A program made the translations under genes and the position numbers. 64,000 nt of DNA, taken from NCBI GenBank assembly GCA_016792845.1, contig JAEUKH010000043.1, forward strand, positions 25,846 through 89,845, in the 5' to 3' direction. Positions 7,354 to 40,754 of the stretch are shown here, one piece after another. How positions within the stretch are numbered: position 1 is the first letter of the stretch; every line of letters starts with the position of its first letter. Origin of the DNA: Myxococcales bacterium. Lineage in GTDB: Bacteria; Myxococcota_A; Polyangia; Polyangiales; Ga0077539. The notes beneath the pieces were generated by a model. That model made no database searches and was not told the DNA's origin. It saw nothing but the letters and a program-made list of their open reading frames with translations.

Positions 7354-7372
7354 CGCCGCAACTGTTACCGAA

Positions 7373-11099
<3,727 letters not shown>

Positions 11100-11124
11100 G
11101 CGACCCCGCAAAGGAAGTCTCAAG

Positions 11125-14100
11125 ATGCCTGCCAAGCTCGGTCGATCGCGCTCCGCTCAGCGGGTGATGGGGCCCCTGGTCGCCTGCCTGGGGCTCTGCA
11201 CCGTGACGCCGCAGGTCTCGGCCCAGGAGTGGCCCATGCTGCGCCACGACCCGCAGCGCTCGGGCCGGGCCGAGGTGGCCCTCGACCTCGCGTCGCCCAC
11301 GGTGCGGTGGCGGCACTACCTCGGCGGCGGCCTCCGCAGCGACCAGTTCGTGGTGGGCGACGTCGACGGCGACCGGGCGCCCGATGTGGTCTTCCTGGCG
11401 GGCTTCAAGCTGCTGGCCAAGCGCTTCGACGACACCCTGCTCTGGGAGACGCCGCCCCTCGAAATCACCGCCATCGTGGGCGCGGTCGACCTCGACGGCG
11501 ACGGCCGCGCCGAGGTGGTGGCCACCGCGGGCCGCGGCAACGTGCTGGTGGTCGACGGCCGACGCGGCGAGGTGCTCTGGGAGATGCCCGTCGACGCCCG
11601 CGGCGGCGGCAGCTACGCCCGCATCGCCGACCTCAACGGCGACCGCCGCGACGACCTCTACGTGGGCGAGTGCCTCGGCGCACCCCACGTCGCCTACGGC
11701 TTCAGCTTCGTGGGCGGCTTCGCGCAGCCGCAGCGGCTCTTCCAGCTCGACGCCCCGCAGGGCGTGTGCGGCACCGACGCCGACGTCGTCGCAGACCTCG
11801 ACGGCGACGGCGCCCGCGAGCTGGTGATGTTCAACGGCGCCTTCGATCAGCTCAGGGTCTTCGACCTCGGCACCGGGGCCCTCCGGAGCACCCTCGCGGC
11901 GCCCCCGAGCGGGGCCTGGGGCTCGTTCTCAACAGCCCTCCCGCGCAACCTCGACGACGACCCCGCGGCCGAGCTCGTGGTCTTCACCAACGGATACGCC
12001 GTCGGCGCCCAACCCTACGGCGCGCGCCGCGTCGCGGTGTACGACCACCGCCAGGGCGGCCTCACCCTCGCCTGGGAGGCCAACGCCCCGGCCGTCGCCG
12101 ACGGCAACGTCACCCTCAGCGGCGAAGGCATCGGCGAGCTCGACGGCGCCCCCGGGGCCGAACTCGTCTTGGGCCTCTACGACCCCAACACCCGGCAGTG
12201 GCAGACCGAGCTCCGCGACGCCCTCACCGGCGCCCTGCGCGGCCGCGCCGACGCCTCCGAGCTCGTCGCCGTGCTGCCGCGCCCGGGCCGCGAGACCCTC
12301 GCCCTCGTCATCGAGAGCGACCGCGCCCTCGTCGGCCTCGCCGTGCGCCCCGAGGGCCTCGTCGCGCGGTGGCGCGTGCCCGCGGTGCGCCCCCTCCTCG
12401 GCAACGACCCCGGCCGCGCGGGGCGCGAGCGCTTCAACACCCGAAGCCTCGTGGTGAGCCTCGGCAGCGACGGGGCCGAGTCGCTCCTGGTGGCCCCCTT
12501 CGACCCCGCGGCGGCGCCCGAGGCGCGGGCCGTGACGAGCCTCCGGGGGCTGCGCCTCGACACCGGCACGCTCGTTGAAAACGTTGTCTTTTCAGCACCT
12601 TCTGACACAACCGTGGTGGCCGCCGGGCAGGGCTCCGCGGTGACGCGGCCCTACGCCCAGGGCCTCGTGGTGACCAGCGACGGGTACATGCTCGTGCTCG
12701 ATCGGAGCCTCGCGAGCACCAACCGCCTCGTGGGCACCGAGTTCACCATCCCCGGCCTGCGGGTGGGCGGATACTACTCGGGCTACGGCGCGCTCGTCCA
12801 AGCGCCCATCGCGGGTCGGGTGAGCGACACCGAGTCTGCGGTCTTTGTGCGCGACAGCCGCCCGGCCCTGGTGCGCCTCGATGCGCGCAACGCCTCGCTC
12901 GCGGCCCCGCCGCGGGTGCGCTTCTCAGCGCCTCGATGGAGCGCCGCGGTGCTCGGCGACTTCGACCACGACGGCGCCCGCGACCTCGCGGCCTTCGACG
13001 GCCGAGACCTCGTGATCGCCGACGCGCGCTCGGGCGCGCTGCGCACCACGGTGACCGACGCCGTAGGTCCCCGCGGCGCGCAAGCGCTCAGCGACATCGT
13101 GCCCTTGCGAAGGGCCGACCGCGGCGCCGACGACCTGGCGTTTCTGCGCCTCGTGCCCGGCATGGGCGGCAACCTCTCGACCTTCGACGCGCGCGGGCAG
13201 CGCCGCTGGGGAGACTTCTTCCGCATCCCTCACTCGGGCTTCGGCCAGCTCGCCGCGGCCGACCTCACCGGCGACATGCACGACGACGTCTTCGTCGCGA
13301 TCAACACCGCGCTCGTCTTCGACGGCCGCGACGGCGCCCTCGCCCACGAGGGGCCCTACGCGCCCTACGGGCTGCCGATCATCGCGCCCTTCCGCGCGAC
13401 CGCGCCCGAGGTCTACCTCGGCGGCATGCTGCCCGATCAGGTGTTCGGCGCTGACCTGACCCTCCGGGGGCGCTTCGAGGCCCCGGGCATCTCGTCGCCG
13501 TGGGGCGCCTTGGTGCGCTGCGAGGGGCGCACCCTCGTCGCGCGATCGCCCGCCTACGGCAGCCGCATCGAGCTCGTCGACCCCGCCGCCCTCGGCCCCG
13601 ACGGGAGCCCGAGCCCCGCGGCCCGTCGCGCGAGCACCCTCCTCGCCGGCGGCCGCGCGTACGGCGCGAGCGAGACCGTCTCGCCGGGGGTGAGGCCGGG
13701 CCTCGTCCACAACCTCACCGCGGTGGCAGACCTCGACGCGACGGGTCGCCCGGCCCTCGTCGCGGGCGCCACCGACGGCTTCCTCTACGCCCTCGACGCG
13801 TGCACGCTGGCCCTGCGATGGGCCTACGATTTCAGGTCTCCGGTGGGCGAAGCGGTGATCGCCGACGCCGACGGCGACGGCCAGAGCGAGCTCATGGTCT
13901 CGGTCGCCGACGGGTACCTCTACGCCTTGGGCCCGCGCACCCTCAGCGCGCCCGGCGCCGTGCGCGACGTCGACCCCAACAGCGACGCCGACCTCACCGA
14001 GCGCGACGAGGTCGAGACCTTCAACACCCTCGCGGTGGCCTTCGACCCGGTGCCCGGCGCGACGCGCTACCAGGTGCGGGTGCTCTCGGCCGGCGGCACG

Positions 14101-23866: not shown

Positions 23867-26326
<2,460 letters not shown>

Positions 26327-26471
26327 AGGCTTCCGCCGCGAGTCTAGTCTGCGGCGAGCTCGGCCACCTAGAGATTCAACGCGCCTCGCGCCGCGCGGCC
26401 GTTGCACACCCCGCGCGGGGGAATTCTTTGCGCCCGAGCGTGACAGTGGCGACGCCCACCGAAGGCGGTCT

Positions 26472-28436
<1,965 letters not shown>

Positions 28437-28902: not shown

Positions 28903-30921
28903 TTACTGGGCCAGGGTCACGCTCGCCATTCGCATGAGAAAATCGAAGTCTGCGTGAGAGTGCTGCACCATCGCGGGGCGGCTTGAGACCACCCGCAAGG
29001 GCCGCGACGGCGCCGCGTCGGTGAGCACACGGAAGCGCTCGCCCCGCGCCAGGGTGCGGGTGCCGAGGGGCGTCGTCGAACCGACCTCGTAGACCACCAC
29101 CCCGGTGCCGTCTTCGTAGGCCAGCACGTCGATGTCGGAGCGCCGCGAGGCGAGGCAGGTGTGCGGCGCGACGTGGGTGCTGAAGCGCCACTCGGTGCCG
29201 AGCAGCGCGCCCTCGACCGAGGGCACGAAATCGCTGTCAGAGAGGGTGCCGTCGCAGCCCTGGGCGGGGTCGGCTTCGAGCCACGCGATCGAGGGCACCG
29301 TGGCCACCGCGCGCATCAGGGTGTCGGGCGCCACGAGGCTCGACGCGAGGGGCAGCGCGCCCGCCATCGCGGCGGGGCTGTCGTTGCCGTTCTGCGTGAA
29401 GGTCACCCGGCCCGCGCCGTCGAGCGATTGCACCACCAGGCGACGCTGACCCGAGGCGCCGGTCGGCTCGGCGTACCGAAACGTCGTACCCACAAAGCCG
29501 CCCGACTCTGCCGGAACATACCCCGCGTGGTTGTACGTCTCGACCAGCGACTGCCCGAAGGCCGTCACCGCGGCGCCCTCGCTCAGCACGCGGTACACCC
29601 CCGCCGCGCCGCCCACCGAGACGATGCGATGCTGCCCCGGGCCGAGGTCGTCGAAGGTCGCGAGGGTCTCGTTCACCCCCGCCGCCATCACGCGCTGAAC
29701 CACCACCCGCGTCGGCGCCATGGGCCCTGTGACCACCGTGACCGCGCTCCGCGCCCAGGTGAGGAGCTGCTGCCCCTGAGGGGCCCCTTCGAGGGTCGTT
29801 GCGGCCTCAAGCTGGTCGGTGTTGCCGTTGTCGTGGAGCCAGGCCACAAACGGCCCCGTGGCCTCAACCTGCACCGTGCCCGGGCGCGTAAACGCGAGGT
29901 CGGCCACGCCCTGAGCGGGCACCGTGAGCGACTGCGTCGAGGCCGCAGACCCGTCGGGCAAAAAGGTCACGCTCAGCACCGTCTCGCGCGGCGCGTGGAA
30001 GTGAACCGACCCGGGGCCCGGCATGAACGCGTAGCCCAGGATGCGCGGCGTCACGCACACCCCGCTCGAACACACCTGACCGCCCACGCACGCCCGGCCG
30101 CAGCCGCCGCAGTGGCTCGCGCTCGCGCGGGTGTCGACCTCGCAGCCCGTGCTCGCCATCTGGTCGCAGTCTGCGAAGTGCATGTTGCACTGCAACAAAC
30201 ATCGCCCCGCCTCGCAGGCCGCCGCGCTGTTGGCCCCCGCGGCGCAGGCCGCGCCGCAGGCCCCGCAGTGCGCGACGGCGCGCGAGAGGTCGACCTCGCA
30301 GCCGTTGTCGGCCCGCCCGTCGCAGTCGCCGAAGCTCGGCCCGCAAGCGAGCGAGCACTGCGCGGCCGCGCACCGCGGGGTCGCGTTGGCCCCCCCGGCG
30401 CAGACCGTGCCGCAAGCCCCGCAGTGGCTCGCCGTCGTGTCGAGGGCGACCTCGCAGCCGTTGCCGGGGTTGTTGTCGCAGTCGGCGAAGCCCGCCGCGC
30501 AGCGAAGGCCGCAGACGCCGCCCGCGCAGGTCGCCGCGGCGTTGCTCGCGCCCGCGCAGACGGTGTCGCAGGCGCCGCAGTGGGCGACGTCGCTGGCGAG
30601 GCGCACGCAGGCCATCGCGCATCGGATCTCGCCCTCGGCGCAAGGCCCGAGATCGGGCGCGACGTCGGCCGCGGCGTCGAGGCTCGCGGCGTCAGCGCCG
30701 GTGTCGACAGGGCCCGCGTCGTCGCGCCCCGCGTCGGAGCCGCCGTCGCCCGCGTCGTCGACGGTCACCGCGTCGAGGCCCGCCCCGTCGCGCGCCGCGA
30801 CATCGTCAGGGAAGGCGCCGAGGTCGCCCACCACCGCGGGGTTGTTGCTGCCCCCGCACGCCCCGACGAGCCCCGCCAGCGCCGCCGCCCATCGAGAAGC
30901 CTTCAAGCTCTTGTCGCGCAT
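28903..30921 (-). CDS. Lipoprotein with four tandem Myxococcus-type cysteine-rich repeats and a C-terminal beta-rich domain
   Basis: Lipobox LAGLVGAC. There are four ~45-aa repeats of HCGACGxxCxxGxNxxxxCxxGxCxLxCxxxFxDCDxxxxNGCEVDL. Confidence 0.7.
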   Translation of the reverse strand: MRDKSLKASRWAAALAGLVGACGGSNNPAVVGDLGAFPDDVAARDGAGLDAVTVDDAGDGGSDAGRDDAGPVDTGADAASLDAAADVAPDLGPCAEGEIRCAMACVRLASDVAHCGACDTVCAGASNAAATCAGGVCGLRCAAGFADCDNNPGNGCEVALDTTASHCGACGTVCAGGANATPRCAAAQCSLACGPSFGDCDGRADNGCEVDLSRAVAHCGACGAACAAGANSAAACEAGRCLLQCNMHFADCDQMASTGCEVDTRASASHCGGCGRACVGGQVCSSGVCVTPRILGYAFMPGPGSVHFHAPRETVLSVTFLPDGSAASTQSLTVPAQGVADLAFTRPGTVQVEATGPFVAWLHDNGNTDQLEAATTLEGAPQGQQLLTWARSAVTVVTGPMAPTRVVVQRVMAAGVNETLATFDDLGPGQHRIVSVGGAAGVYRVLSEGAAVTAFGQSLVETYNHAGYVPAESGGFVGTTFRYAEPTGASGQRRLVVQSLDGAGRVTFTQNGNDSPAAMAGALPLASSLVAPDTLMRAVATVPSIAWLEADPAQGCDGTLSDSDFVPSVEGALLGTEWRFSTHVAPHTCLASRRSDIDVLAYEDGTGVVVYEVGSTTPLGTRTLARGERFRVLTDAAPSRPLRVVSSRPAMVQHSHADFDFLMRMASVTLAQ

Positions 30922-30959: not shown

Positions 30960-32168
30960 TCAAGGCATCACGCGACCGACGCCCACGGTGCCCGCCCACG
31001 CAGGCAGGGCCCCGACGCGCTCGGCCGGCGGGCATCGCCCCGTGCGCAGCGTCACCGCAAGCCCCGTCACCGCCCAGACGGGTCGCGAGAGCACCACCCG
31101 AACGCGCTCATACTCGCGATCGCACTGGAGCTCGCCCAGCTCGCTCGGAGGCACCAGGATGCCCTGGCAGCCCGCCGCCCCGAGGTGCACGAACGCGTGG
31201 CTGCCCGCGGGCACCGGCCGACGAAACACCGGGTGAAACAAGCCGAAAAAGCGGAGCCTGAGGGTGATCACGTCGCGCGCCTCGATCGCTTCGAGGGCGC
31301 TCAACACCTCGCCGCGCCGCAGCCCGCGCGCGCCGGTCGACTCGGTGACGAGCCGCAGCCCCACATACTCGCCCGCCTCGGCCATCATGATGGGCCGCCG
31401 CGCGTGCTGAATCTCGCGCACCCTGACGGCGCCGAGGCCAGGCACGAAATAGCGCTCTCCGACCCTGAGGCGCCCCTGCTGCACGAAGACCTCGACCACC
31501 GTCGAGGCGCCCTCGCGGCGGTAGGTCTCGACGATCTGGGCCAGGGCCGGAGCGTCGCCGTCCCACGAGACGTCGGGCATGCGCTCGAGCACCTCGGCGA
31601 GGGCGCCCACGGTCGGCTGCCAGCGCGCGTCGTGGCGGCCCTTCAGCGCCGAGCCTCGCACGATGGCCACCTCGTCGCCGTTGTAGCCGCACATCCACAG
31701 CGACTCGCGCACCTCGGCCTCGACCGCGTCGAGCCAGCCCGGCTCCGCCGCCGCATCGCACGCGTTGACGAACACCACCAGCCGAGACTCCGGCACGCCG
31801 CGGAGGTGCATGAGGTGCTCTCGGGTCTGCGCCTCGACCGAGCGCTCGGCGTGCACCACCAAGATCGCCGCGCGGCACTGGCTCACGGCGCGAGAGGCCC
31901 ATCGCAAGAGCGATCGGTCGCCGGGCACGTCGACGAGGGTGTACCGACGCCGCGCCGACACCACCAGGCCCTCGACCACCCGCGGCCCGCGGGCCTCGCG
32001 GTCGACCCGCGGCCCCGCCACCCAGACGCCCCCGGGCTGCCCCGACAGCGCGAGCGACAGCGCCTCAAGGAGCGTGCTCTTGCCGCTCGCCGCGTGCCCC
32101 ACGATGGCCACCGGCAACACGGGTCGATCGCGGTACATCTCTCGTTCGCCGTCTGTGCTCGACGCCAT
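30960..32168 (-). CDS. EF-Tu/SelB-like translational-GTPase-fold protein with degenerate G motifs
   Basis: P-loop GHAASGKST and DVPGD (G3) are present. NKxD is replaced by NACD. Domain II is a beta-barrel (RVGERYFVPGLGAVRVREIQHARRPIMMAEAGEYVGLRL). Confidence 0.65.
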   Translation of the reverse strand: MASSTDGEREMYRDRPVLPVAIVGHAASGKSTLLEALSLALSGQPGGVWVAGPRVDREARGPRVVEGLVVSARRRYTLVDVPGDRSLLRWASRAVSQCRAAILVVHAERSVEAQTREHLMHLRGVPESRLVVFVNACDAAAEPGWLDAVEAEVRESLWMCGYNGDEVAIVRGSALKGRHDARWQPTVGALAEVLERMPDVSWDGDAPALAQIVETYRREGASTVVEVFVQQGRLRVGERYFVPGLGAVRVREIQHARRPIMMAEAGEYVGLRLVTESTGARGLRRGEVLSALEAIEARDVITLRLRFFGLFHPVFRRPVPAGSHAFVHLGAAGCQGILVPPSELGELQCDREYERVRVVLSRPVWAVTGLAVTLRTGRCPPAERVGALPAWAGTVGVGRVMP

Positions 32169-32485
32169 CGCCGCGGCCTCCGTGGGGCGAAGGTACCCTA
32201 TCGCGCGCGCAACCTGCTCCGATTCAGCGGAGGTCGCACGCGCCGCGCGGCGTCTACGGTGTCGGCTGCGACGATGCGCGGCGGGGCCGCCTCACCCCTC
32301 GGGCGCGCGGGCGCAGTTTGCCGCCGAGGCCGTTGAAGCGCCGGGCGCGTCGGTACGTTCGAGCGAACTGACCGCCCGGTGAGGCTCATGCCTTGCGCGG
32401 GCCTTGAACGTGTGGTTCACCCGTTGCCCCGAAAACGCCAAGAGTGGCCCTGGTCGCGGGCACGGCACGAGTGAGGCGCGAGACG

Positions 32486-33706
32486 ATGTTGCACCGCAGC
32501 ACGCCCAAAAGGGCAATTCTTTCAGTCTTTTCAATGATCCTCGCGTGGAGCGTGGGCGGTGATGTTGCAGCGCAGCATCGCCACCGCAACCGGCCCGCGA
32601 GCTGCCCCCCGGCGCAGCACGACTCGGCGGGGCACTGCTGCGGCGCGGGTGAAGAGTGGGTCGAGGCCCGCAACACCTGCGTGTGCCTCGAAGCCAACGG
32701 CTGCGCGGCCCCAGCGCCCCCGCCCGCCCCCGTCGCGACGACGCCCGCGCCGGCGCCTGTGGCCGTGACGCCGGCGCCGACCCCCGCGCAGCCGCCTCCC
32801 ACCGAGCGGCGCTGCCCCGAGGGCATGGTGCTCATCGAGCGCGGCACCTACCAGCGCGGCGCCCCCATCGGCGAGGGCGAGCGCAACGAGACCCCGGCCC
32901 ATCGCGTCGAGCTCTCGCCCTACTGTGTCGACCGCACCGAGGTGACCGTGGGGCGCTACCGCGGGTGTGTGGCCTCGGGCGCGTGCACCGTGCACACGAC
33001 CCTGCAGCTGCCGGGGCTGCCTCCGGCGCAGCTCCCGGCGTGGAATTCGTACTGCAACGGCGGCCGCACCGACCGCGACGAGCACCCGATGAACTGCGTC
33101 GACTGGGCGCAAGCGAGCGCCTACTGCGCCTCACGGAGCGCGCGGCTCCCCACCGAGGCCGAGTGGGAGTTCGCAGCCCGCGGGGTCGAGCCGCGGCGCT
33201 TCCCCTGGGGCGACACGCCGCCGAACCAAGACCGGGTCAACGGCTGCGACGCCGCGTGCCGCGCCGCCCTCCTGCCCGCGGGCATCGCCCCCCAAGGCGC
33301 CTTTCCCCACAACGACAATTTCGCGGGTACCGCGCCGGTGTCGAGCTTCCCCGGCGGGGCCTCGCCGCTCGGCCTCCACGACATGGCCGGCAACGTCATG
33401 GAGTGGACCGCCGACTGGTTCGGCCCCTACGGCTCGATGCCCCAGACCGACCCCACGGGCCCCATGACCGGCACCACCCGCGCGGTGCGCGGCGGTCACT
33501 GGTACTCGTCGCAGCCGGGCGCCCTGCGCACCACCGCGCGGGTCGAGGCCAACCCCACCGTGCGCCTCGCCACCCTCGGGTTTCGCTGCGTGGCCGCCCC
33601 GCAGGTCGTGGCCATCGCGCCGCCGCCGCCGCCCGAGCCCCCGCCCGCCCCGGAGCCCCCGCCCGCGCCCGAACCTTCGCGCCGCGGCCGTCACCGCGAC
33701 CGCTGA
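32486..33706 (+). CDS. Formylglycine-generating-enzyme (FGE)/sulfatase-modifying-factor domain protein, secreted
   Basis: Signal peptide MLHRSTPKRAILSVFSMILAWSVGG. FGE-sulfatase motifs RLPTEAEWEFAARG, MAGNVMEWTADWF, RGGHWYS...LGFRC. Pro-rich N- and C-terminal linkers. Confidence 0.8.
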   Translation: MLHRSTPKRAILSVFSMILAWSVGGDVAAQHRHRNRPASCPPAQHDSAGHCCGAGEEWVEARNTCVCLEANGCAAPAPPPAPVATTPAPAPVAVTPAPTPAQPPPTERRCPEGMVLIERGTYQRGAPIGEGERNETPAHRVELSPYCVDRTEVTVGRYRGCVASGACTVHTTLQLPGLPPAQLPAWNSYCNGGRTDRDEHPMNCVDWAQASAYCASRSARLPTEAEWEFAARGVEPRRFPWGDTPPNQDRVNGCDAACRAALLPAGIAPQGAFPHNDNFAGTAPVSSFPGGASPLGLHDMAGNVMEWTADWFGPYGSMPQTDPTGPMTGTTRAVRGGHWYSSQPGALRTTARVEANPTVRLATLGFRCVAAPQVVAIAPPPPPEPPPAPEPPPAPEPSRRGRHRDR

Positions 33707-34164: not shown

Positions 34165-36522
34165 TCAGCGCGTCGGGTTCGGCCGCGCGGGCCCCTGGGT
34201 CGGCGCCTCGACGGGCACCCTCACGGGGGTGTATCCGCGCCGCCCCTCGGCGCCCCGCACCCGCGCCAACGCGAGCTCGGCGAAGAGCCGCGCGATCGGC
34301 CGCGCGTCCGACACGTCGCGCTGCCCGAGGGGGTCGTCGGCGGGCACGAGGAGCGCCACCCCGCCCCCCGCCGCGGCGGGCCTCGGCAGCGCCAGGAGCT
34401 CGCCGAATCGAAGCCCCGTGTCGCCGCGGGTGTTGAGCGTCACCGGCACCGCCCGATCGTTGAGGGTGAGCGGGCGAAAGAGCGAGCGACCGTCCCAGTC
34501 GGGCACGCGCTCGACCCCGAACACGTCGAGGAGGGTGGCCGCGCCGTCGAGCCCCGTCACCAGGCTCGCCGCGAGGGCCCGCGGGTCGAGCCCAGGCCCC
34601 GACGCGATGAGCACCGTCGAGCCCGAAGCCCGCAGCGTCAACGCGCCGTCTTGGATCACCCGCGCCTCGCCGAGGGCCGTGCCCCGGTCGCCCGACACCA
34701 CGAACAGGGTCTCGTCGAGCATGCGGGCCTCGCGCAGCCGCTCGATCATCGTCGCGAGGGCCCGATCGACCCCCCGCAACGCCGCGTCGTAGAGGAGCCC
34801 GAGGCGCTCCTGGTCGCGGGCGTCGATGCGGACCTCGCCGCGCCGCACTCGGGTGAGCAGCACCGCCGTCTGCCCGGGCGTCATCGTGCCCTCGTAGGGC
34901 GTCGGGTCGAGGGCGTGAATGTCCTCGTTCGCGGGGCTGAGCGGCAGCAAGCCCGACCGCAACACCAGCACCGAGACGTAGCGCCCGCGCGAGGCCAAAA
35001 GCCCCTCGGTGGCGGGCCCGAACAACGCCTCGGGCGTGCAGCTCTCGGCCTCGTCAGGGCACGGGTGAAAGTTCGCCCCGCGCGCCGCCCCAGAGCTCGC
35101 CCACGCCCGATCGTCTGCCCAAGCCTCGACCGGAATGCCCAACTCGACCAGCGAGGCCAGGGCCCGCGGCGCGTCATCGGCGAGCCGCTCGGTCGACTCG
35201 GTCACCCGGTGAAGGTCTGACGCGAGGCCCGTGCTCACGCTCGTCAACGCGGCGAAATTTCGCGACGCCGGCGAGGCCGCTTCGAGCGCGACGCCGCGTT
35301 GTTGCAGCGCAGCAAAGCCGCCCGCGTTGAGGTGCGGCGAGAGCGTCGGCACGAAGCGATCGGCCCGCGCGCCCCGCACGATCACCCACACCACCCGCTT
35401 GATCTGGGTTGGCGCCCCCTCGCCGCGGTGACCCTGGTCGCGGAGCTCGATGCGCGGCGACGACAGCGCGAGACGCACCTCGGAGCGCGGCGCCTCGACG
35501 CCCCCGTCAGGCAGCTCGGCCTGCGCGTCGTCAGGCGACGGCGCCGGGCTGAGCGCGCTCACCGAGAAGCGAGCCGGGCGCCCCGCGAGGGAGCCGAGGT
35601 CGAGCTCGACCCCCACCCAGGGCTGATTGGGCTGCACGACCACGCGACGCTCAAGGCTCGGCACGCCATCGGCTTCGACCCGCACCCGCGCCGTGAGAGG
35701 CCTCGGCGCCCGGGCCGCGCCGCGGGGAGCCTCGGCCGCCAGGCTCGCACGAAACACCGCCCCGCGCGGGATGACCTCGAACGCAGAGAGCGTCGTCGGC
35801 GGATAGAACGTCAGCGCGCGCCGCGGCGTACGCTCGACGGCCACGTCGTTGAGGAGGTCGACCACCCGGGTCACCGGCGTCGCGCCGCGGGTGAGATGCA
35901 CCCAATCGACCTCGGCCGAAGGCGCCGCGCTCGGCCCCGTCTTGGGCGCCCGCGGGAAGCGCAACTCGACGTCGGCCATCGCGCGGGTGAAACGATCGGC
36001 CGGCACCGACGCGCTCACCACCGTGCTCTGGGCGTAGGGCGCGAGCGCCGCCACCCGCACGAGGAGCCCGTCGACCACCACCGCCACCGAGCGCGCCGTC
36101 GCGTGCCGAACCCGCAGCCGCACCGTGTCGGGCGCAGGCAGCGGCTCGCCCGACAGGTCGCTGAGGCTCCGCGATTCGAGGGGCACCCGCAGCCGCACCC
36201 GCCCCGCCACCGAGGCCCACGAGTCGCCGTTCAAGGTCTCGGCCCTGAGCACCGTGCCCGCCGAGAGGTAGGCCGACGCTTGGGGCTCTCCGAGGTCGAC
36301 CACGGGGCCCGCCACGTCGATGCCGCCTTGGCGAAACGCCTCGGTCAGGTCGATCGCGTTCGGCGGCAGCTCCTCGCCCACCGCAGGCGCGGCGCTGTCT
36401 TGTTGCACCGCAGCATCGCCCCGGGGCGCCGCCGCGCGACGCGACCCGCACCCGAGCGAGACGAGACCCACGGCGACCGCGAGGCTGAGCGCCCGCGCGC
36501 CGCGCACCGCCCCGAGCCTCAT
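34165..36522 (-). CDS. Large hypothetical lipoprotein
   Basis: Lipobox LVSLGCGS. 785 aa of mixed composition. No confident domain assignment. Confidence 0.55.
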   Translation of the reverse strand: MRLGAVRGARALSLAVAVGLVSLGCGSRRAAAPRGDAAVQQDSAAPAVGEELPPNAIDLTEAFRQGGIDVAGPVVDLGEPQASAYLSAGTVLRAETLNGDSWASVAGRVRLRVPLESRSLSDLSGEPLPAPDTVRLRVRHATARSVAVVVDGLLVRVAALAPYAQSTVVSASVPADRFTRAMADVELRFPRAPKTGPSAAPSAEVDWVHLTRGATPVTRVVDLLNDVAVERTPRRALTFYPPTTLSAFEVIPRGAVFRASLAAEAPRGAARAPRPLTARVRVEADGVPSLERRVVVQPNQPWVGVELDLGSLAGRPARFSVSALSPAPSPDDAQAELPDGGVEAPRSEVRLALSSPRIELRDQGHRGEGAPTQIKRVVWVIVRGARADRFVPTLSPHLNAGGFAALQQRGVALEAASPASRNFAALTSVSTGLASDLHRVTESTERLADDAPRALASLVELGIPVEAWADDRAWASSGAARGANFHPCPDEAESCTPEALFGPATEGLLASRGRYVSVLVLRSGLLPLSPANEDIHALDPTPYEGTMTPGQTAVLLTRVRRGEVRIDARDQERLGLLYDAALRGVDRALATMIERLREARMLDETLFVVSGDRGTALGEARVIQDGALTLRASGSTVLIASGPGLDPRALAASLVTGLDGAATLLDVFGVERVPDWDGRSLFRPLTLNDRAVPVTLNTRGDTGLRFGELLALPRPAAAGGGVALLVPADDPLGQRDVSDARPIARLFAELALARVRGAEGRRGYTPVRVPVEAPTQGPARPNPTR

Positions 36523-39500
36523 GGCGCGATCGCGAGGTGCACCACCACCGCACGACCCAAGCGCACCGTCGCGAACTCGAAGCCCGTCACCACGCCCGCC
36601 TGGTAGCGCACCGTGTGCAGGCCCTCGCTCAGCCGAAGCACCGCCGGGGCCGCGCCGACAGGGCGATTGTCGACGTCAAGACGGACCCCCGCCGCCCGGG
36701 TCTCAAGCACCAGGAGGCCCTCGTTGGCCCCGAGGCTCCCGCCATCGAGCCAGGGCCCGGGGTCGAGCCCCTCGGCGCCGCCGTCTGAGCCCGCGGGCGT
36801 CGCAGCCGCCGCCGCGGCCTCGTCGTCGGCCTCGGCCCCCGCGTCGAGGCCCGGAGTTTGTTGCACCGCAACAGGGTCTCGCTGCGCCGCAACATCGGCC
36901 GCGGCGTCGGCCTCGACGGCGGCCCGCGGCGCCCGCGACACCCAAGCGTTCACCGCGAAGTAGCTGAGCGCGAAGGCCACCACGACCCCCAGCAAGAGCG
37001 CCACCGAGCGGCCCCACGGCGACGGCGGCGGAGGCGACTGAAACGCGGTCGGGCGCATCGACGCGGGCGCGCGACGCGGGGCCTCGATCGACGACGCGCT
37101 CGGCGACGACGCGGGCTCAGCAGCCGCGGGCGCCGGAGGCTCTGGTGTCGCTGGCGCCTCTGGCTCGGCGCGGGGCGCTGCGAAGAGCGCCGCGGCGAGG
37201 CTCTGCTCGCTCACCTCATCGATGGCCTGCGGGCGTGGCGCCGGCGGCGGCGGCGGACGCGAGGGCGCGGGCGGCGGGTCGGTGTACGAGAGCTCCGAAG
37301 CCCCCGGCACGCCGCGAGGCGCCTCGGGCGCACCCGGCACCACCGCGGCGGCCATTTGTTGCAGCGCAACATCGTCACGCTGCGGCGCAACCTCGTCGGC
37401 CTCGGCCCCGTCGCCGAGGGCCGCCATCACCCAGCGGCCGCCGTCTTCGTCGGCCTCGCGCACCAGAGGCTCTGCCACCGGCGGCATCGACTCGGTGCCC
37501 GCGGGCGCGAGCTCGGGTCGCGAGGCCCGCACGAGCGCCGCCGCGGTCTCGGGCGCGATCTCGACGGTGACCCGCGCGCCCGCATCGGGCTCGGGCGCCT
37601 CGACCTCACGCGCGGGGCTCTCGCTCAGCGGCGCGGGCGCAACTTTGAAGGCCGTGGCCAGCGCCTCGGGAGCCTTCTTCGTGAGCAACGACACCGGCGC
37701 GGGCTCCGAGGGCCGCGTCGCCTCGACGAGGGGCGTGAGCGCGAGCGCCGACACCCGCGCGGTGGCGTCGGCGTCGACCCGCATCCCCGCAGGCACCTTC
37801 GGCGCCGCAGGAATGCTCGTCAACGGGATGTGCGCCCCGCCCGGCGGCGTCACCGAACGGGTCACGAGATCGCCGAGGTCGGGCAGCGGCACGTCGGGCG
37901 TCGCCAAGAGGGCCACCGGAGGCGGCGAGCGCCGCGGGCTCTCGTTGGGCCGCGTCGCCACGAGCCCCGCGTCGAGCACCACCTCTGACCAGCTCTCTTC
38001 GGCGTTCGGGGCCGTCGCCTGCATGCCCCACATCACCACGTCGGCGAGCGAGGCGAGGCTGTCGACGCCGGCCGACGCGGCCGCCTCGTCGACCTTCACC
38101 TCGACCGGGCTCGACACCGGCTCGGGCGCAGGGGCCGCCGGAGCCAGGGTCTCGCGCGACACCGTCGGCGCACGCGGCGGCGGCGGAAGCGCCGGCATCA
38201 CCCCCACCGGCGCCTCGGGCGCGGGCGGCATGCTCGACGGATTGTGCACCGCAGCAAATCGCGTCTCGACCTCGGGCAAGGGCCCGCTCACCGGCGCGAT
38301 GTTGAAATCGAGGGTCTTCCACCCGGCGCGGGGCGGGTCGGGCGCGAGCTCAGGGCCCACCGCGGCCATCGGAGCCGTCTCGACCCGCGCGCCGCTCGGC
38401 CCCACCACCCGGGTGATCGCGCCGCGCCGCGCCAGCTCGACCAACACGGGCTCGATCTCGGCAGGGCTCACGCCGTCGCGCAAGATCATCTCGCGCGGCG
38501 CGTCGCCCGTCGCGACCCGCTCGACCAACCGACGCATCGGCGCCGGGAGCGAGCGCGCATAGGCCAGGGCCGCCTCGGTGTCGAGCTCGACGCGCACCAC
38601 CTCAAGCAAGGCCGCGCCCGAGACCGACGACTCAAGGGTCACCAGCGCGTCGGCGCTGCGCCGCAAGAGGGCCGAGAGGGGCTCCTGAATGGTCGCCCGC
38701 ACCGCGTGACGCGCGCGGCTCACCGTGAAGCGCGCGGCCGAGGCGCCGAGCACCTGCATGAGCGCCGTCGCGCCGCGGGTCAGGTTGCCGTCGGCGCCCG
38801 TACGCACCGCGTTCACCACCGCGCCGCCGCGGAGGTCGAGCTCGGTCACGCTCACCGAGTCAGAGATCGCCACCGTGGCGTCGCCGAGCGAGACCGCGAC
38901 GGTGGTCAGCAAGGCCACCGCGCCGACGTGCTCGACGCGCCCCCGCACCTCGCCCGCGGTGAGGTCGGCCACCCGACGCAAGAGCCGCACGCGGAGCCGC
39001 AGCGTCGCGCGGATCCGCGCGAGGATGGCCTCGCCCGAAGCCTCTTTGCGGAGGTACCCCTGGGCGCTCGCGCCGAGCTCGCGCATGCGCTGAAGGAGGT
39101 CGTCCTTCCATGAAATCAAGATCACCGGCGTGTGGCGAAGCACCACGTCGCGGCGAAAGGCGCGGCAGAGCCCGAAGCCGTCGAGGCCCGGCATCAGAAT
39201 GTCGCTCACCACCACGTCGGGCTGCGTCTCGCGCGCCCGGGCCAGCGCCGACTCGCCGTCGTAGCAGCCCACCACCCGCATCCCCGCGTCGCGCAAGAGC
39301 GACTCAAACTGCGACACCACCGCGCGGTCGTCGTCGACCACCAGCGCGAGCCGCCCGGGCAAGGGGTCATCGCCGCGCTGCGACTCGAACGCGCCAGGGT
39401 CCTCGCTCAGCGAGAACACATCGGTGCCCGGCAAGCCCCGCGGCGCCGCCGGGAGCTGAAACTTCACGGCCCCCTCGCTCGACCGCTCGATCACCTCACG

Positions 39501-40658
39501 AATCCGCGCGATGGCCTCCCAGGTGGCGGCGAGCACTTCGCTCCCGTGGCCGAGCGCGATGCGTGCGGTGCGCGCCCGCGGCGCCGCGGCGCCCACGATG
39601 CCGCGCTTCAGCTCGTCGGTCAGCGCCGTCACGAGCTCGTCGAGGGTGAGGTCGCCGAGGTCAGACTCGGTAGGCGGCGGCACCGACGCGACGCCGCCCT
39701 TCACCGCGCGCACGATGGCCTTGCGAAGCGTCTCGCCGTCGGCCGCGTCGGGCAAGACGTCGAAGGCCTCGGTGAGCCGAAACCGCACGCTCTCGGTGTC
39801 ATCTCCGGCCGAGGCCAGGAGGATCACCGGTAGAAACTCCGTCACCGGGTCGCTCTTGAGCGCGTCGAGGAGCGCCACCCCGTCGGCGGGCGGGTCGAGC
39901 TCGGCCACGATCACGTCGGGCGCCGTCTCCCGGGCCCGCACCACGGCGTCGTCGTAAACCCGGGTGACCTGCACCTCGACGTCGGTGCCGCACGCTTCGA
40001 GGAGCGAGCTCGCCCGCGCCGTCGAGCCGCAGAGCAGCACCTGGAGGGGCCCCGTCGGCGAGGGCGCCGCCACCGCGCCGCGGGCCGCACCGATGGGCGC
40101 GAAGGGCGCGAGGTCGGCGGTGATCGTGCGCGGCGACCCGGGGCCCCTCGGAGCCTCCGCCGCGGGGCTCTCGGGCGTGCTCACGGCGTCGAGCCCGAGC
40201 GGCAAGGTCGCACCGGGCGGAGGCGGCCCGAACTTCTCACCCGTCGGCCCCAACGCCGGCGGAAAGAGCGTCAACGTGTGGTGCGGGATGTCACTCCGCG
40301 TCCCCTGCGGGAGCGACATCGCCGCGGGCTTGGCCGAGTCTCGGGTGTCGAGCTCGGCCCGCGAAGAGAGCGACGCCACCAGCGCGGCGAGGCGATCGAG
40401 CTGCGGGCGCTGAAGCGCAGGCTGCGACCGCGTCGCGTCGACGAGGTCGATGATGGCCTTGAGCCCCTCGCAGAAGCTAGGCAACCCGTACGAGCGCGCG
40501 AGGGCGTGAACCCCCACCGCGCGGCGCTTGAGCTCATCGCGCATGCGCGTCGAGCGCGGGTCGGCGATGAGCGCCCCGAGGGTCGCCTTGATTTCGACGG
40601 TCTTGCGGGGCAGTCCGCGCAGAAACGCCTGGCGTGGATCTTCACTTTCGTCGCGCAC
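36519..40658 (-). CDS. Multidomain response-regulator-like protein: pseudo-receiver plus canonical REC domain, long Pro/Ala-rich region, TM segment, C-terminal PEGA domain
   Basis: REC domain: ALVVDDDRAVVSQFESLLRDAGMRVVGCYDGESALARARETQPDVVVSDILMPGLDGFGLCRAF...PVILISWKDD. An earlier degenerate REC: QVLLCGSTARASS...DVIVAEL...LPVILLAS. The C-terminal GLLVLETRAAGVRLDVDNRPVGAAPAVLRLSEGLHTVRY resembles PEGA. Confidence 0.75.
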   Translation of the reverse strand: MRDESEDPRQAFLRGLPRKTVEIKATLGALIADPRSTRMRDELKRRAVGVHALARSYGLPSFCEGLKAIIDLVDATRSQPALQRPQLDRLAALVASLSSRAELDTRDSAKPAAMSLPQGTRSDIPHHTLTLFPPALGPTGEKFGPPPPGATLPLGLDAVSTPESPAAEAPRGPGSPRTITADLAPFAPIGAARGAVAAPSPTGPLQVLLCGSTARASSLLEACGTDVEVQVTRVYDDAVVRARETAPDVIVAELDPPADGVALLDALKSDPVTEFLPVILLASAGDDTESVRFRLTEAFDVLPDAADGETLRKAIVRAVKGGVASVPPPTESDLGDLTLDELVTALTDELKRGIVGAAAPRARTARIALGHGSEVLAATWEAIARIREVIERSSEGAVKFQLPAAPRGLPGTDVFSLSEDPGAFESQRGDDPLPGRLALVVDDDRAVVSQFESLLRDAGMRVVGCYDGESALARARETQPDVVVSDILMPGLDGFGLCRAFRRDVVLRHTPVILISWKDDLLQRMRELGASAQGYLRKEASGEAILARIRATLRLRVRLLRRVADLTAGEVRGRVEHVGAVALLTTVAVSLGDATVAISDSVSVTELDLRGGAVVNAVRTGADGNLTRGATALMQVLGASAARFTVSRARHAVRATIQEPLSALLRRSADALVTLESSVSGAALLEVVRVELDTEAALAYARSLPAPMRRLVERVATGDAPREMILRDGVSPAEIEPVLVELARRGAITRVVGPSGARVETAPMAAVGPELAPDPPRAGWKTLDFNIAPVSGPLPEVETRFAAVHNPSSMPPAPEAPVGVMPALPPPPRAPTVSRETLAPAAPAPEPVSSPVEVKVDEAAASAGVDSLASLADVVMWGMQATAPNAEESWSEVVLDAGLVATRPNESPRRSPPPVALLATPDVPLPDLGDLVTRSVTPPGGAHIPLTSIPAAPKVPAGMRVDADATARVSALALTPLVEATRPSEPAPVSLLTKKAPEALATAFKVAPAPLSESPAREVEAPEPDAGARVTVEIAPETAAALVRASRPELAPAGTESMPPVAEPLVREADEDGGRWVMAALGDGAEADEVAPQRDDVALQQMAAAVVPGAPEAPRGVPGASELSYTDPPPAPSRPPPPPAPRPQAIDEVSEQSLAAALFAAPRAEPEAPATPEPPAPAAAEPASSPSASSIEAPRRAPASMRPTAFQSPPPPSPWGRSVALLLGVVVAFALSYFAVNAWVSRAPRAAVEADAAADVAAQRDPVAVQQTPGLDAGAEADDEAAAAAATPAGSDGGAEGLDPGPWLDGGSLGANEGLLVLETRAAGVRLDVDNRPVGAAPAVLRLSEGLHTVRYQAGVVTGFEFATVRLGRAVVVHLAIAP

Positions 40659-40754
40659 GGGCTTCGGGGCTCAGCCGCGGTGCTTGGCACGAAGCGAGGG
40701 GTGAACGCCAGAAATGTACACGCCGAGGGGCTTCGTCGGCCCGCGGGGTGTGCT

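Follow-up and report, generated by a model that had tools for sequence, protein, structure and literature searches.

What does a cell do with an EF-Tu that no longer carries the residues used by EF-Tu to hydrolyze GTP and to hold aminoacyl-tRNA? This question is raised by a gene in a 64,000-nucleotide stretch of a Myxococcales bacterium genome (here called the window; assembly GCA_016792845.1, contig JAEUKH010000043.1, positions 25,846 to 89,845). The gene is an open reading frame (ORF) of 402 codons plus a stop codon at positions 30960..32168 of the window, on the minus strand, recognized in the ORF list and by PF00009. The protein that it encodes (the window protein) belongs to a family of EF-Tu-like proteins that is restricted to Myxococcota and that we could not find described. 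It is probably a repurposed, nontranslational derivative of EF-Tu that would bind guanine nucleotides and hydrolyze GTP slowly or not at all, that is, a pseudo-GTPase.

An EF-Tu-like protein with an altered GTPase center

The codon-position GC contents of the ORF (0.77/0.54/0.89) follow the pattern of a real gene at the window GC content of 72%, and a Shine-Dalgarno-like GGAGG, read from the sequence at 32177..32181 (minus strand), lies 8 nucleotides (nt) 5' of the ATG at 32168. The product matches the EF-Tu GTP-binding domain PF00009 with an E value of 8.5e-21 (Pfam). A first-pass annotation of the window had recognized domains G, II, and III of a translational GTPase, and the three domains are real: TIGR00485 covers residues 11 to 296, mitochondrial EF-Tu aligns with residues 6 to 378, and AlphaFold, given a 30-sequence family alignment, predicts a G domain and two β-barrels (pLDDT, 88.8; pTM, 0.90). 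The secondary structure of this model places the domain II barrel at approximately residues 207 to 296 (31281..31550, minus strand, as are all features of the ORF). The domain III barrel, supported by AlphaFold and Foldseek, occupies approximately residues 297 to 402 (30963..31280), with the mitochondrial EF-Tu alignment ending at residue 378. The best structural matches in Foldseek are EF-Tu structures in the closed GTP form (1EXM, TM score of 0.82; 1TTT chain A, 0.81), whereas GDP-form structures match only at a TM score of ∼0.48.

The window protein aligns to solved EF-Tu structures with an E value of 7e-31 (HMMER), and in this alignment GHAASGKST falls on GHIDHGKTT, DVPGD on DCPGH, NACD on NKCD, and GSALK on GSALK. 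This motif-by-motif correspondence confirms the G motifs as first read and shows that the substitutions are real, so that the objection of an alignment artifact falls. The P-loop (G1; residues 24 to 32, 32073..32099) has an intact GxxxxGK[ST] core, and the equivalents of Val20, Asp21, and His22 (Escherichia coli EF-Tu numbering) are Ala, Ala, and Ser. In G3, DVPGDR (residues 80 to 85, 31914..31931), the catalytic His84 is replaced by Asp, and the family-typical Arg85 is present. The helix-C motif QTREH (residues 114 to 118, 31815..31829), conserved in canonical EF-Tu and in the family, and the G5 motif GSAL (residues 172 to 175, 31644..31655) are intact. In G4, NACD (residues 135 to 138, 31755..31766), Lys136 has become Ala, and Cys137 and Asp138 are retained. 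The earlier reading took this as the loss of the guanine-specificity lysine and proposed an altered nucleotide. The lysine of NKxD is indeed gone, but it is the aspartate of this motif, not the lysine, that specifies guanine. Because Asp138 and the SAL motif are kept, guanine would still be the expected base, and the altered-nucleotide proposal is not sustained.

Three further departures from EF-Tu had been overlooked. The switch-I remnant RGPRV (residues 60 to 64, 31977..31991) stands in place of RGITI and offers neither Thr nor Ser for coordination of Mg2+ and the γ-phosphate; aligners differ on whether Pro or Arg is the equivalent of Ile60, and AlphaFold defines the region poorly (pLDDT of <50 at residues 57 to 60). 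In domain III, PVFRRP (residues 313 to 318, 31215..31232) takes the place of GGRHTP, the first three residues of which (GGR316-318) are kept in ∼100% of canonical EF-Tu and in 91 to 94% of the family. The last hairpin of domain III is also remodeled: RTGRCPPAERVGALPAWAGTVGVG (residues 375 to 398, 30975..31046) shows the family motif RDGxDG-x(8-13)-WGGTxGxG in degenerate form, the canonical counterpart being REGGRTVGAG. The length of its insertion fits the family, and the Trp and GT.G.G residues are kept, with RDGxDG lost; block-mean pLDDT values are 80 (residues 371 to 380), 55 (381 to 390), and 88 (391 to 400). From established EF-Tu/tRNA structure, we take the remodeled hairpin (E378 to T382) to lie on the EF-Tu surface that touches the tRNA T-stem.

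The aminoacyl/CCA pocket of EF-Tu is replaced in full. The substitutions E215V, D216E, F218Y, I220R, T228E, N273Y, and L277R, together with a Glu at the equivalent of H66, account for 8 of the 8 pocket positions, which are 97 to 100% conserved in 37 sampled canonical EF-Tu sequences.

Relation to EF-Tu, SelB, and CysN

The window protein scores well below the cutoffs of the profile hidden Markov models (HMMs) for EF-Tu, EF-1α, SelB, and CysN. It reaches 112.5 bits with the EF-Tu model TIGR00485 (equivalog NF000766; cutoff, 522.4), 109 to 111 bits with EF-Tu subfamily models (cutoffs, 449 to 479), 85 and 67 bits with the EF-1α models NF008969 and TIGR00483 (cutoffs, 502 and 540), 71.9 bits with the SelB model TIGR00475 (cutoff, 242), and 32.4 bits with the CysN/NodQ model TIGR02034 (cutoff, 336). 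A neighbor-joining (NJ) tree was built from 394 trimmed columns with 200 bootstraps. Besides the window protein and 32 family members, it contains 19 sampled canonical EF-Tu sequences and E. coli TufA, SelB, and CysN, together with seven other divergent EF-Tu-like proteins. SelB and CysN are excluded from all EF-Tu-like sequences in 98.5% of the bootstraps, and the check by phylogeny called for by the first-pass annotation thus agrees with the HMM scores in keeping the window protein apart from both.

Identity as SelB was rejected on the score and the tree and also because domain IV, the C-terminal winged helix that binds the selenocysteine insertion sequence, is absent: the window protein ends after domain III at 402 amino acids, versus 614 in E. 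coli SelB. Identity as CysN was rejected on the score, the tree, and the lack of a cysD-like gene among the eight genes examined between 23.9 and 40.7 kb of the window. E. coli SelB and CysN, moreover, retain the His after DxPG. A bona fide EF-Tu was rejected as well, with the score below the cutoff and His84, the gate formed by Val20 and Ile60, Thr61, the Lys of NKxD, and the aminoacyl-tRNA pocket all lost.

A family of EF-Tu-like proteins in Myxococcota

Fast searches conceal the relatives of this protein. A word-indexed search with the single protein returned only itself and canonical EF-Tu (∼32% identity), which wrongly hinted at an orphan; the same kind of search with a family profile was flooded by canonical EF-Tu at ∼420 to 450 bits, with two family members surfacing. 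A profile of family domain III only (85 residues) found nothing at an E value of 1e-5 in a word-indexed search of 5.8 billion sequences. A scan of a genome collection gave no match with the single window protein and one locus, in a Polyangia genome (L005), with the family alignment. An exhaustive HMMER search of 1.84 billion cluster representatives was needed to reveal the family. There, P0121, aligned over its full length, scores 238 bits (∼39 to 42% identity, depending on the aligner), followed by P0122 (198 bits), P0123 (169 bits), P0124 (155 bits), and others down to P0132 (127 bits), compared with at most 113 bits for canonical EF-Tu. Dozens of full-length relatives (400 to 460 amino acids) outscore every canonical EF-Tu.

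The family consists of at least 35 clusters at 50% identity that share a derived C-terminal trait, the conversion of the REGGRTVGAG hairpin into RDGxDG-x(8-13)-WGGTxGxG with ∼13 residues inserted. With these clusters and a syntenic orthologue (described below), any reading of the gene as a one-off is not supported. The window protein shows the family traits D84 (a non-His residue), R85, C137, and D138, and its best nonself matches are family members. Typical members score 182 to 366 bits on EF-Tu models, always below the cutoff and always far above their SelB or CysN scores, which indicates that the family descends from bacterial EF-Tu. It is monophyletic in the NJ point estimate but in only 36% of the bootstraps, and the window protein pairs with P0121 in 63.5%.

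Every family member with a named organism is from Myxococcota, the sources being Polyangiales, Polyangiaceae, Polyangia, Nannocystaceae, Nannocystis punicea, and metagenome-assembled genomes of Myxococcaceae and Myxococcales. The N. punicea member (WP_269041178.1) is encoded in a complete genome. Database entries are labeled “elongation factor Tu” (JGI) or “GTP-binding protein” (NCBI); NCBIfam and Pfam were found to hold no model for the family, and a literature search for a described myxobacterial EF-Tu-like family returned nothing relevant.

Two side observations concern the edges of the family. The record of P0138 (551 amino acids) starts inside the G domain, without a P-loop, and continues into C-terminal pentapeptide repeats and a Cys-rich, zinc-ribbon-like tail, a fusion that may hint at partners of the family. 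P0136, P0147, P0154, P0182, P0212, P0265, and others are degenerate EF-Tu-like proteins from metagenomes that lack the C-terminal insertion; several of them also lack His84 or have an altered G4 motif (DCPGL, DCPGN; NACD in P0265). To judge from these sequences, erosion of EF-Tu paralogues may extend more widely than the myxobacterial family.

Retained and lost features of the family

Comparison of 35 family members with the 37 canonical EF-Tu sequences, site by site, shows a protein that has largely preserved its nucleotide-binding motifs. The P-loop residues G18, H19, G23, K24, and T/S25 are kept, as are D80, P82, and G83 of G3, QTREH at 114 to 118, and the acidic and Arg residues of helix D. 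Position 61 is Thr or Ser in 80% of the family, G4 reads N/S135 with C137 in 100% and D138 in 94%, and G5 is G[AS]A. Position 84 is Arg in 40% and His in only 9% of the members, being otherwise L, A, S, K, M, Y, D, or others. The gate residues Val20 and Ile60 are lost across the family, and so are Asp21, the domain II motif GRGTV, and the sequence of the switch-II helix; neither the aminoacyl pocket (H66, E215, D216, T228, and N273) nor the A76 pocket (I220 and L277) is conserved. Overall, 70 positions are conserved in both groups, the family has lost 99 positions at which canonical EF-Tu is ≥90% conserved, and 15 are newly conserved in the family. The new positions include the Gly and Trp residues of the insertion and Arg85, which is found in 77% of the family versus Ala in 97% of canonical EF-Tu.

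The loss of His84 is therefore a trait of the whole family and not of the window gene alone, and this, with the family-wide loss of the gate and the aminoacyl pocket, strengthens the earlier suggestion that the protein has been repurposed. In the mechanism that we propose, GTP and GDP binding would be retained through the P-loop, DxPG, the Asp of NxCD, and SAL. Without Lys136 and the switch-I Thr, the window copy would probably have a weak affinity and no proper sensing of Mg2+ and the γ-phosphate. With Asp at position 84 and the Val20/Ile60 gate gone, the mechanism of EF-Tu predicts no ribosome-triggered GTP hydrolysis and no activation by the sarcin-ricin loop such as occurs in EF-Tu; the first-pass annotation had itself raised a possibly nonhydrolyzing protein, which the combined loss of His84 and gate would support. 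Carriage of aminoacyl-tRNA would also be lost, the pocket being replaced, the T-stem hairpin carrying an insertion of ∼13 residues, and GGRHTP missing from this copy. The output of the protein would then be partner binding through its remodeled switch-II and domain III surfaces.

Divergence and selection of the window copy

The window protein, P0121, P0122, and P0123 form a subclade in which all members lack the switch-I Thr. The G4 motif of this subclade is NACD in the window protein and P0121, SHCD in P0122, and NRCD in P0123. GGRHTP and RDGxDG are lost in the window copy alone within the subclade, and its terminal branch is the longest there (NJ). No other family member seen is as degenerate or as fast-evolving as the window copy.

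A syntenic orthologue of the gene is present in GCA_963853115.1 and in JGI metagenomes (L003/L007), within a common order of a divergent FGE-sulfatase gene, the EF-Tu-like gene, one variable gene, a cytochrome c gene, and a Ser/Thr kinase gene. Between the window and the orthologous genome, the neighboring proteins are 53 to 61% identical but the EF-Tu-like proteins only ∼39%, showing that this gene evolves faster than its surroundings. Strain variants were available as two metagenomic contigs that are 99.4 to 99.5% identical to the window. Nine sites of the ORF are polymorphic in them, with seven synonymous and two nonsynonymous changes (I295T and V364L), corresponding to a ratio of nonsynonymous to synonymous substitution rates (dN/dS) of ∼0.11 (P = 0.002 versus a neutral expectation of 73% nonsynonymous changes). 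The gene is thus not neutral but under purifying selection, and the ORF is a live, selectively maintained gene.

Genomic neighborhood

At the window locus, the gene lies outside a tuf, selB, or cysN context, as first stated, with none of these among its neighbors within ∼6 kb; neither selA/selD nor a tuf operon was found among the neighboring genes examined, and the 64-kb window holds no second EF-Tu-like copy. The gene had been described as monocistronic, which is not clearly the case: a same-strand gene (28903..30921, minus) begins 38 nt past its stop codon, and a terminator-like site sought between the two was not found, so the two may be cotranscribed. The downstream gene encodes a Cys-rich lipoprotein-like protein of 672 amino acids, with a lipoprotein-type N terminus (…LVGAC), four Cys-rich repeats, and no Pfam match; the MXAN_6577-like cysteine-rich family is matched only weakly (NF041328; 58.7 bits versus a cutoff of 100). 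It is not a conserved partner, since the orthologous locus has a 2-oxoglutarate (2OG)-Fe(II) oxygenase gene in its place.

On the other side, the FGE-sulfatase-domain gene (32444..33706, plus strand; PF03781, E = 3.4e-55) is divergent, as the first-pass annotation had it. Its product contains Pro/Ala-rich linkers and is 61% identical to the orthologue in the syntenic L003/L007 locus. Adjoining it is a gene for a 785-amino-acid protein (34165-36522, minus) in which a Sulfatase match is weak and limited to the C terminus (E = 5e-6), and further on a gene for a 1,383-amino-acid protein (36519-40670, minus) whose sole recognizable domain is a response-regulator receiver at residues 443 to 554. Two Ser/Thr protein kinase genes (23867-26617, minus, and 26472-28436, plus), one fused to RCC1 repeats and the other with an N-terminal zinc ribbon, are both syntenic with L003/L007; their longest ORFs overlap divergently by ∼145 nt, and at least one start codon is thus probably further in.

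Across the family, a gene shared by the ten independent contexts was sought and not found. In L003/L007, the family gene (10001-11245) overlaps by 4 nt with a downstream gene for an AlkB-like 2OG-Fe(II) oxygenase (11242-11853). In N. punicea (L010, CP114040.1), a 4-nt overlap joins the family gene to an upstream gene for a microbial-type PARG (7183-8004 and 8001-9254). Such overlaps raise the thought that the EF-Tu-like protein could be modified by, or work with, enzymes of these kinds, but neither pairing is conserved in other contexts. Elsewhere, EVE and CYTH genes lie upstream (L011), a DUF58/VWA gene lies downstream (L006), and a dNK-like kinase gene lies 8 nt upstream (L016); in L004, L012, L017, L019/L005, and L020 the gene is effectively solitary among metabolic genes. 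The sole recurrence in a neighbor-to-neighbor tblastn comparison is weak and links two unannotated genes, one for 255 amino acids in L011 (10004-10771) and one for 280 amino acids in L004 (7067-7909), whose products are 28% identical over 218 amino acids (E = 3e-12). A Ser/Thr kinase gene occurs within ∼8 kb in five of nine contexts (L005 and L019 counted as one and L020 left out), which was judged not significant against a background that we estimate at ∼1 kinase per 40 kb in such kinase-rich genomes. No FGE or sulfatase gene was found in the other family contexts examined, and no tRNA-mimic partner (eRF1, Pelota, or Balon-like) was found near family members. Since the contexts are not conserved, the 38-nt linkage in the window is probably incidental and the function likely trans-acting.

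A role in antiphage defense was considered and rejected: PADLOC models gave only P-loop-level noise for the window protein (E values no better than 7.6e-5, over 25 to 50 residues) and zero matches for family members P0125 and P0148.

Weighing the alternatives

Several observations count against a repurposed pseudo-GTPase. Arg85 could serve as an alternative catalytic group, in which case “nonhydrolyzing” may be wrong. Most members keep GGRHTP, the basic residues at position 89, and part of the 5'-end site, by which some RNA binding is conceivable for the family and less likely for the window copy. No conserved neighbor that would point to a partner or pathway was found in the ten contexts. The monophyly of the family, at 36% bootstrap, rests mainly on the shared insertion, and the divergence of the window copy from its orthologue (∼39% identity versus 53 to 61% for the neighbors) also fits relaxed constraint.

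The main rival is an active, ribosome-independent GTPase switch with a nontranslational target, in which Arg85 (DxPGxR), or Asp84 in the window protein, replaces His84 and would position or activate water or stabilize the transition state. Such a protein would alternate between GTP- and GDP-bound states to regulate its target, in the manner of G proteins whose catalytic residues come from noncanonical positions. The prevalence of Arg85 in the family, set against Ala in canonical EF-Tu, and its presence in the window copy speak for such a switch, and the conservation of the P-loop, DxPG, NxCD, and the switch-I Thr/Ser in most family members points to selection on nucleotide chemistry beyond folding. 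The authors of a study of aSelBL, an archaeal SelB-like family that also lacks the His, raise the same possibility (PMC3037878). Against it, the window copy has lost the switch-I Thr and has Ala at position 136, changes that normally cripple Mg2+/γ-phosphate coordination and affinity; position 84 is hypervariable, so that no single substitute catalytic residue can be assigned there; and no GAP-like or GEF-like partner (GTPase-activating protein or guanine nucleotide exchange factor) is conserved nearby in the family contexts. We regard an active switch as rather unlikely for the window protein, and it fits most family members better than this copy.

A further idea, tentative and held with little confidence, is that myxobacteria have made a duplicated EF-Tu into a new class of bacterial pseudo-translational GTPase: a nucleotide-bound EF-Tu look-alike that neither carries aminoacyl-tRNA nor fires on the ribosome but still recognizes an EF-Tu interactor, acting as a regulator or decoy. 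On the ribosome, the interactor could be the factor-binding site or the L7/L12 stalk; other candidates are EF-Ts, a Ser/Thr kinase, and toxins, antibiotics, or modifying enzymes that target EF-Tu. A regulator or decoy of this kind could, for example, damp translation during development or soak up EF-Tu-targeting agents, and the scattered contexts, including the overlapping PARG and AlkB-like oxygenase genes, would fit its trans-acting role.

Decay is an improbable reading, with the gene as a relic of tuf duplication that drifts toward a pseudogene and has no function of its own. Its degeneracy would suit a relic, Thr61, Lys136, GGRHTP, and RDGxDG being lost where P0121 keeps some or all of them, as would its low identity to the orthologue relative to the syntenic neighbors and its long terminal branch. 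Yet the 402 codons are uninterrupted, their third-position GC is 0.89, a good ribosome-binding site precedes them, AlphaFold is highly confident of the fold, the 7:2 ratio of synonymous to nonsynonymous polymorphisms departs from neutrality, and position and orientation are kept between genomes whose other proteins are only 53 to 61% identical.

A specialized elongation factor is very improbable, whether a stress or antibiotic self-resistance EF-Tu resembling Streptomyces Tuf3 and actEF-Tu or a SelB-like carrier of a special tRNA. EF-Tu is the closest of all families, the closed three-domain fold is the same, most of the family keeps GGRHTP and QTREH, and myxobacteria are prolific antibiotic producers. 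His84 is absent, however, the aminoacyl and A76 pocket residues are not conserved in the family and are all substituted in the window protein, SelB domain IV is missing, and the locus has no selA/selD or tuf-operon context; in addition, the only EF-Tu-like subfamily that a 2015 survey set apart as clearly distinct is actEF-Tu, from actinomycetes (PMC4342817).

A CysN/NodQ-like GTPase of sulfur metabolism, prompted by the syntenic FGE-sulfatase neighbor and the weak Sulfatase match of the 785-amino-acid protein, can practically be dismissed, given 32 bits with the CysN model, exclusion from CysN in the tree, no cysD-like gene among the neighbors examined, no FGE or sulfatase gene in any other family context examined, and the His that E. 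coli CysN keeps after DxPG.

Comparison with known systems and significance

The window protein shares with EF-Tu (TufA) the closed three-domain fold, the P-loop core, DxPG, QTREH, the Asp of NKxD, SAL, and the acidic and Arg residues of helix D. It differs by the change of His84 to Asp, the loss of Thr61, and the change of Lys136 to Ala, and its family differs by the absence of the gate, the aminoacyl/CCA pocket, the switch-II helix sequence, and GRGTV and by the ∼13 residues added in the REGGRT hairpin. SelB and CysN/NodQ belong to the same superfamily and share domains G, II, and III. SelB has domain IV and CysN has a cysD partner, and the window protein has neither; CysN nonetheless provides a precedent for nontranslational use of this fold.

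The actEF-Tu proteins, condition-specific translation factors of actinomycetes and the only clearly distinct EF-Tu-like subfamily in the 2015 survey (PMC4342817), are, like Streptomyces Tuf3 and the myxobacterial family, lineage-restricted and clearly divergent EF-Tu paralogues that exist beside the canonical factor. They are actinomycete and translational, whereas the family described here is myxobacterial and lacks the catalytic His and the aminoacyl-tRNA pocket, so that it would not be expected to translate. The best functional analogy is Ski7, a paralogue within the EF1A/EF-Tu superfamily whose G3 His is also substituted (by Ser) and which binds GTP in an “active” conformation without hydrolyzing it in the presence of 80S ribosomes (PMC4933942). 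Ski7 is eukaryotic and Hbs1 derived (a paralogue of Hbs1/eRF3), carries an N-terminal region that binds the exosome and the Ski complex, and acts in nonstop decay; its homology to the family is at the superfamily level only. It has a known RNA decay pathway, whereas the window protein shows no evidence of association with ribosomes or RNA decay.

Another lineage-restricted paralogue of a tRNA-carrier GTPase without a conserved G3 His is aSelBL, for which ribosome-type hydrolysis was judged unlikely (PMC3037878); a member, MM1309 (“EF-Pyl”), binds Cys-tRNACys according to the title of the report (PMC4329189). The pattern of conservation is the reverse, however. In aSelBL, the G motifs are poorly conserved and domains II and III well conserved (PMC3037878), whereas the myxobacterial family mostly keeps the nucleotide motifs and loses the aminoacyl-tRNA pocket of domain II. 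Translational GTPases thus have known paralogues that are confined to one lineage and have given up translation, and the newly recognized myxobacterial family would join them.

EF-Tu is among the most conserved and most studied proteins, and a second lineage-specific family would differ in kind from actEF-Tu. The labels that its members now carry overstate or hide the nature of the protein. The family is present in the cultured N. punicea, which makes it experimentally testable, and the window copy, as the most eroded, is the least informative member with which to start. Demonstration of a role as decoy or regulator would make the family considerably more interesting. The family would be a bacterial counterpart of Ski7 and aSelBL and would offer a natural experiment on how the parts of EF-Tu map to its interactions.

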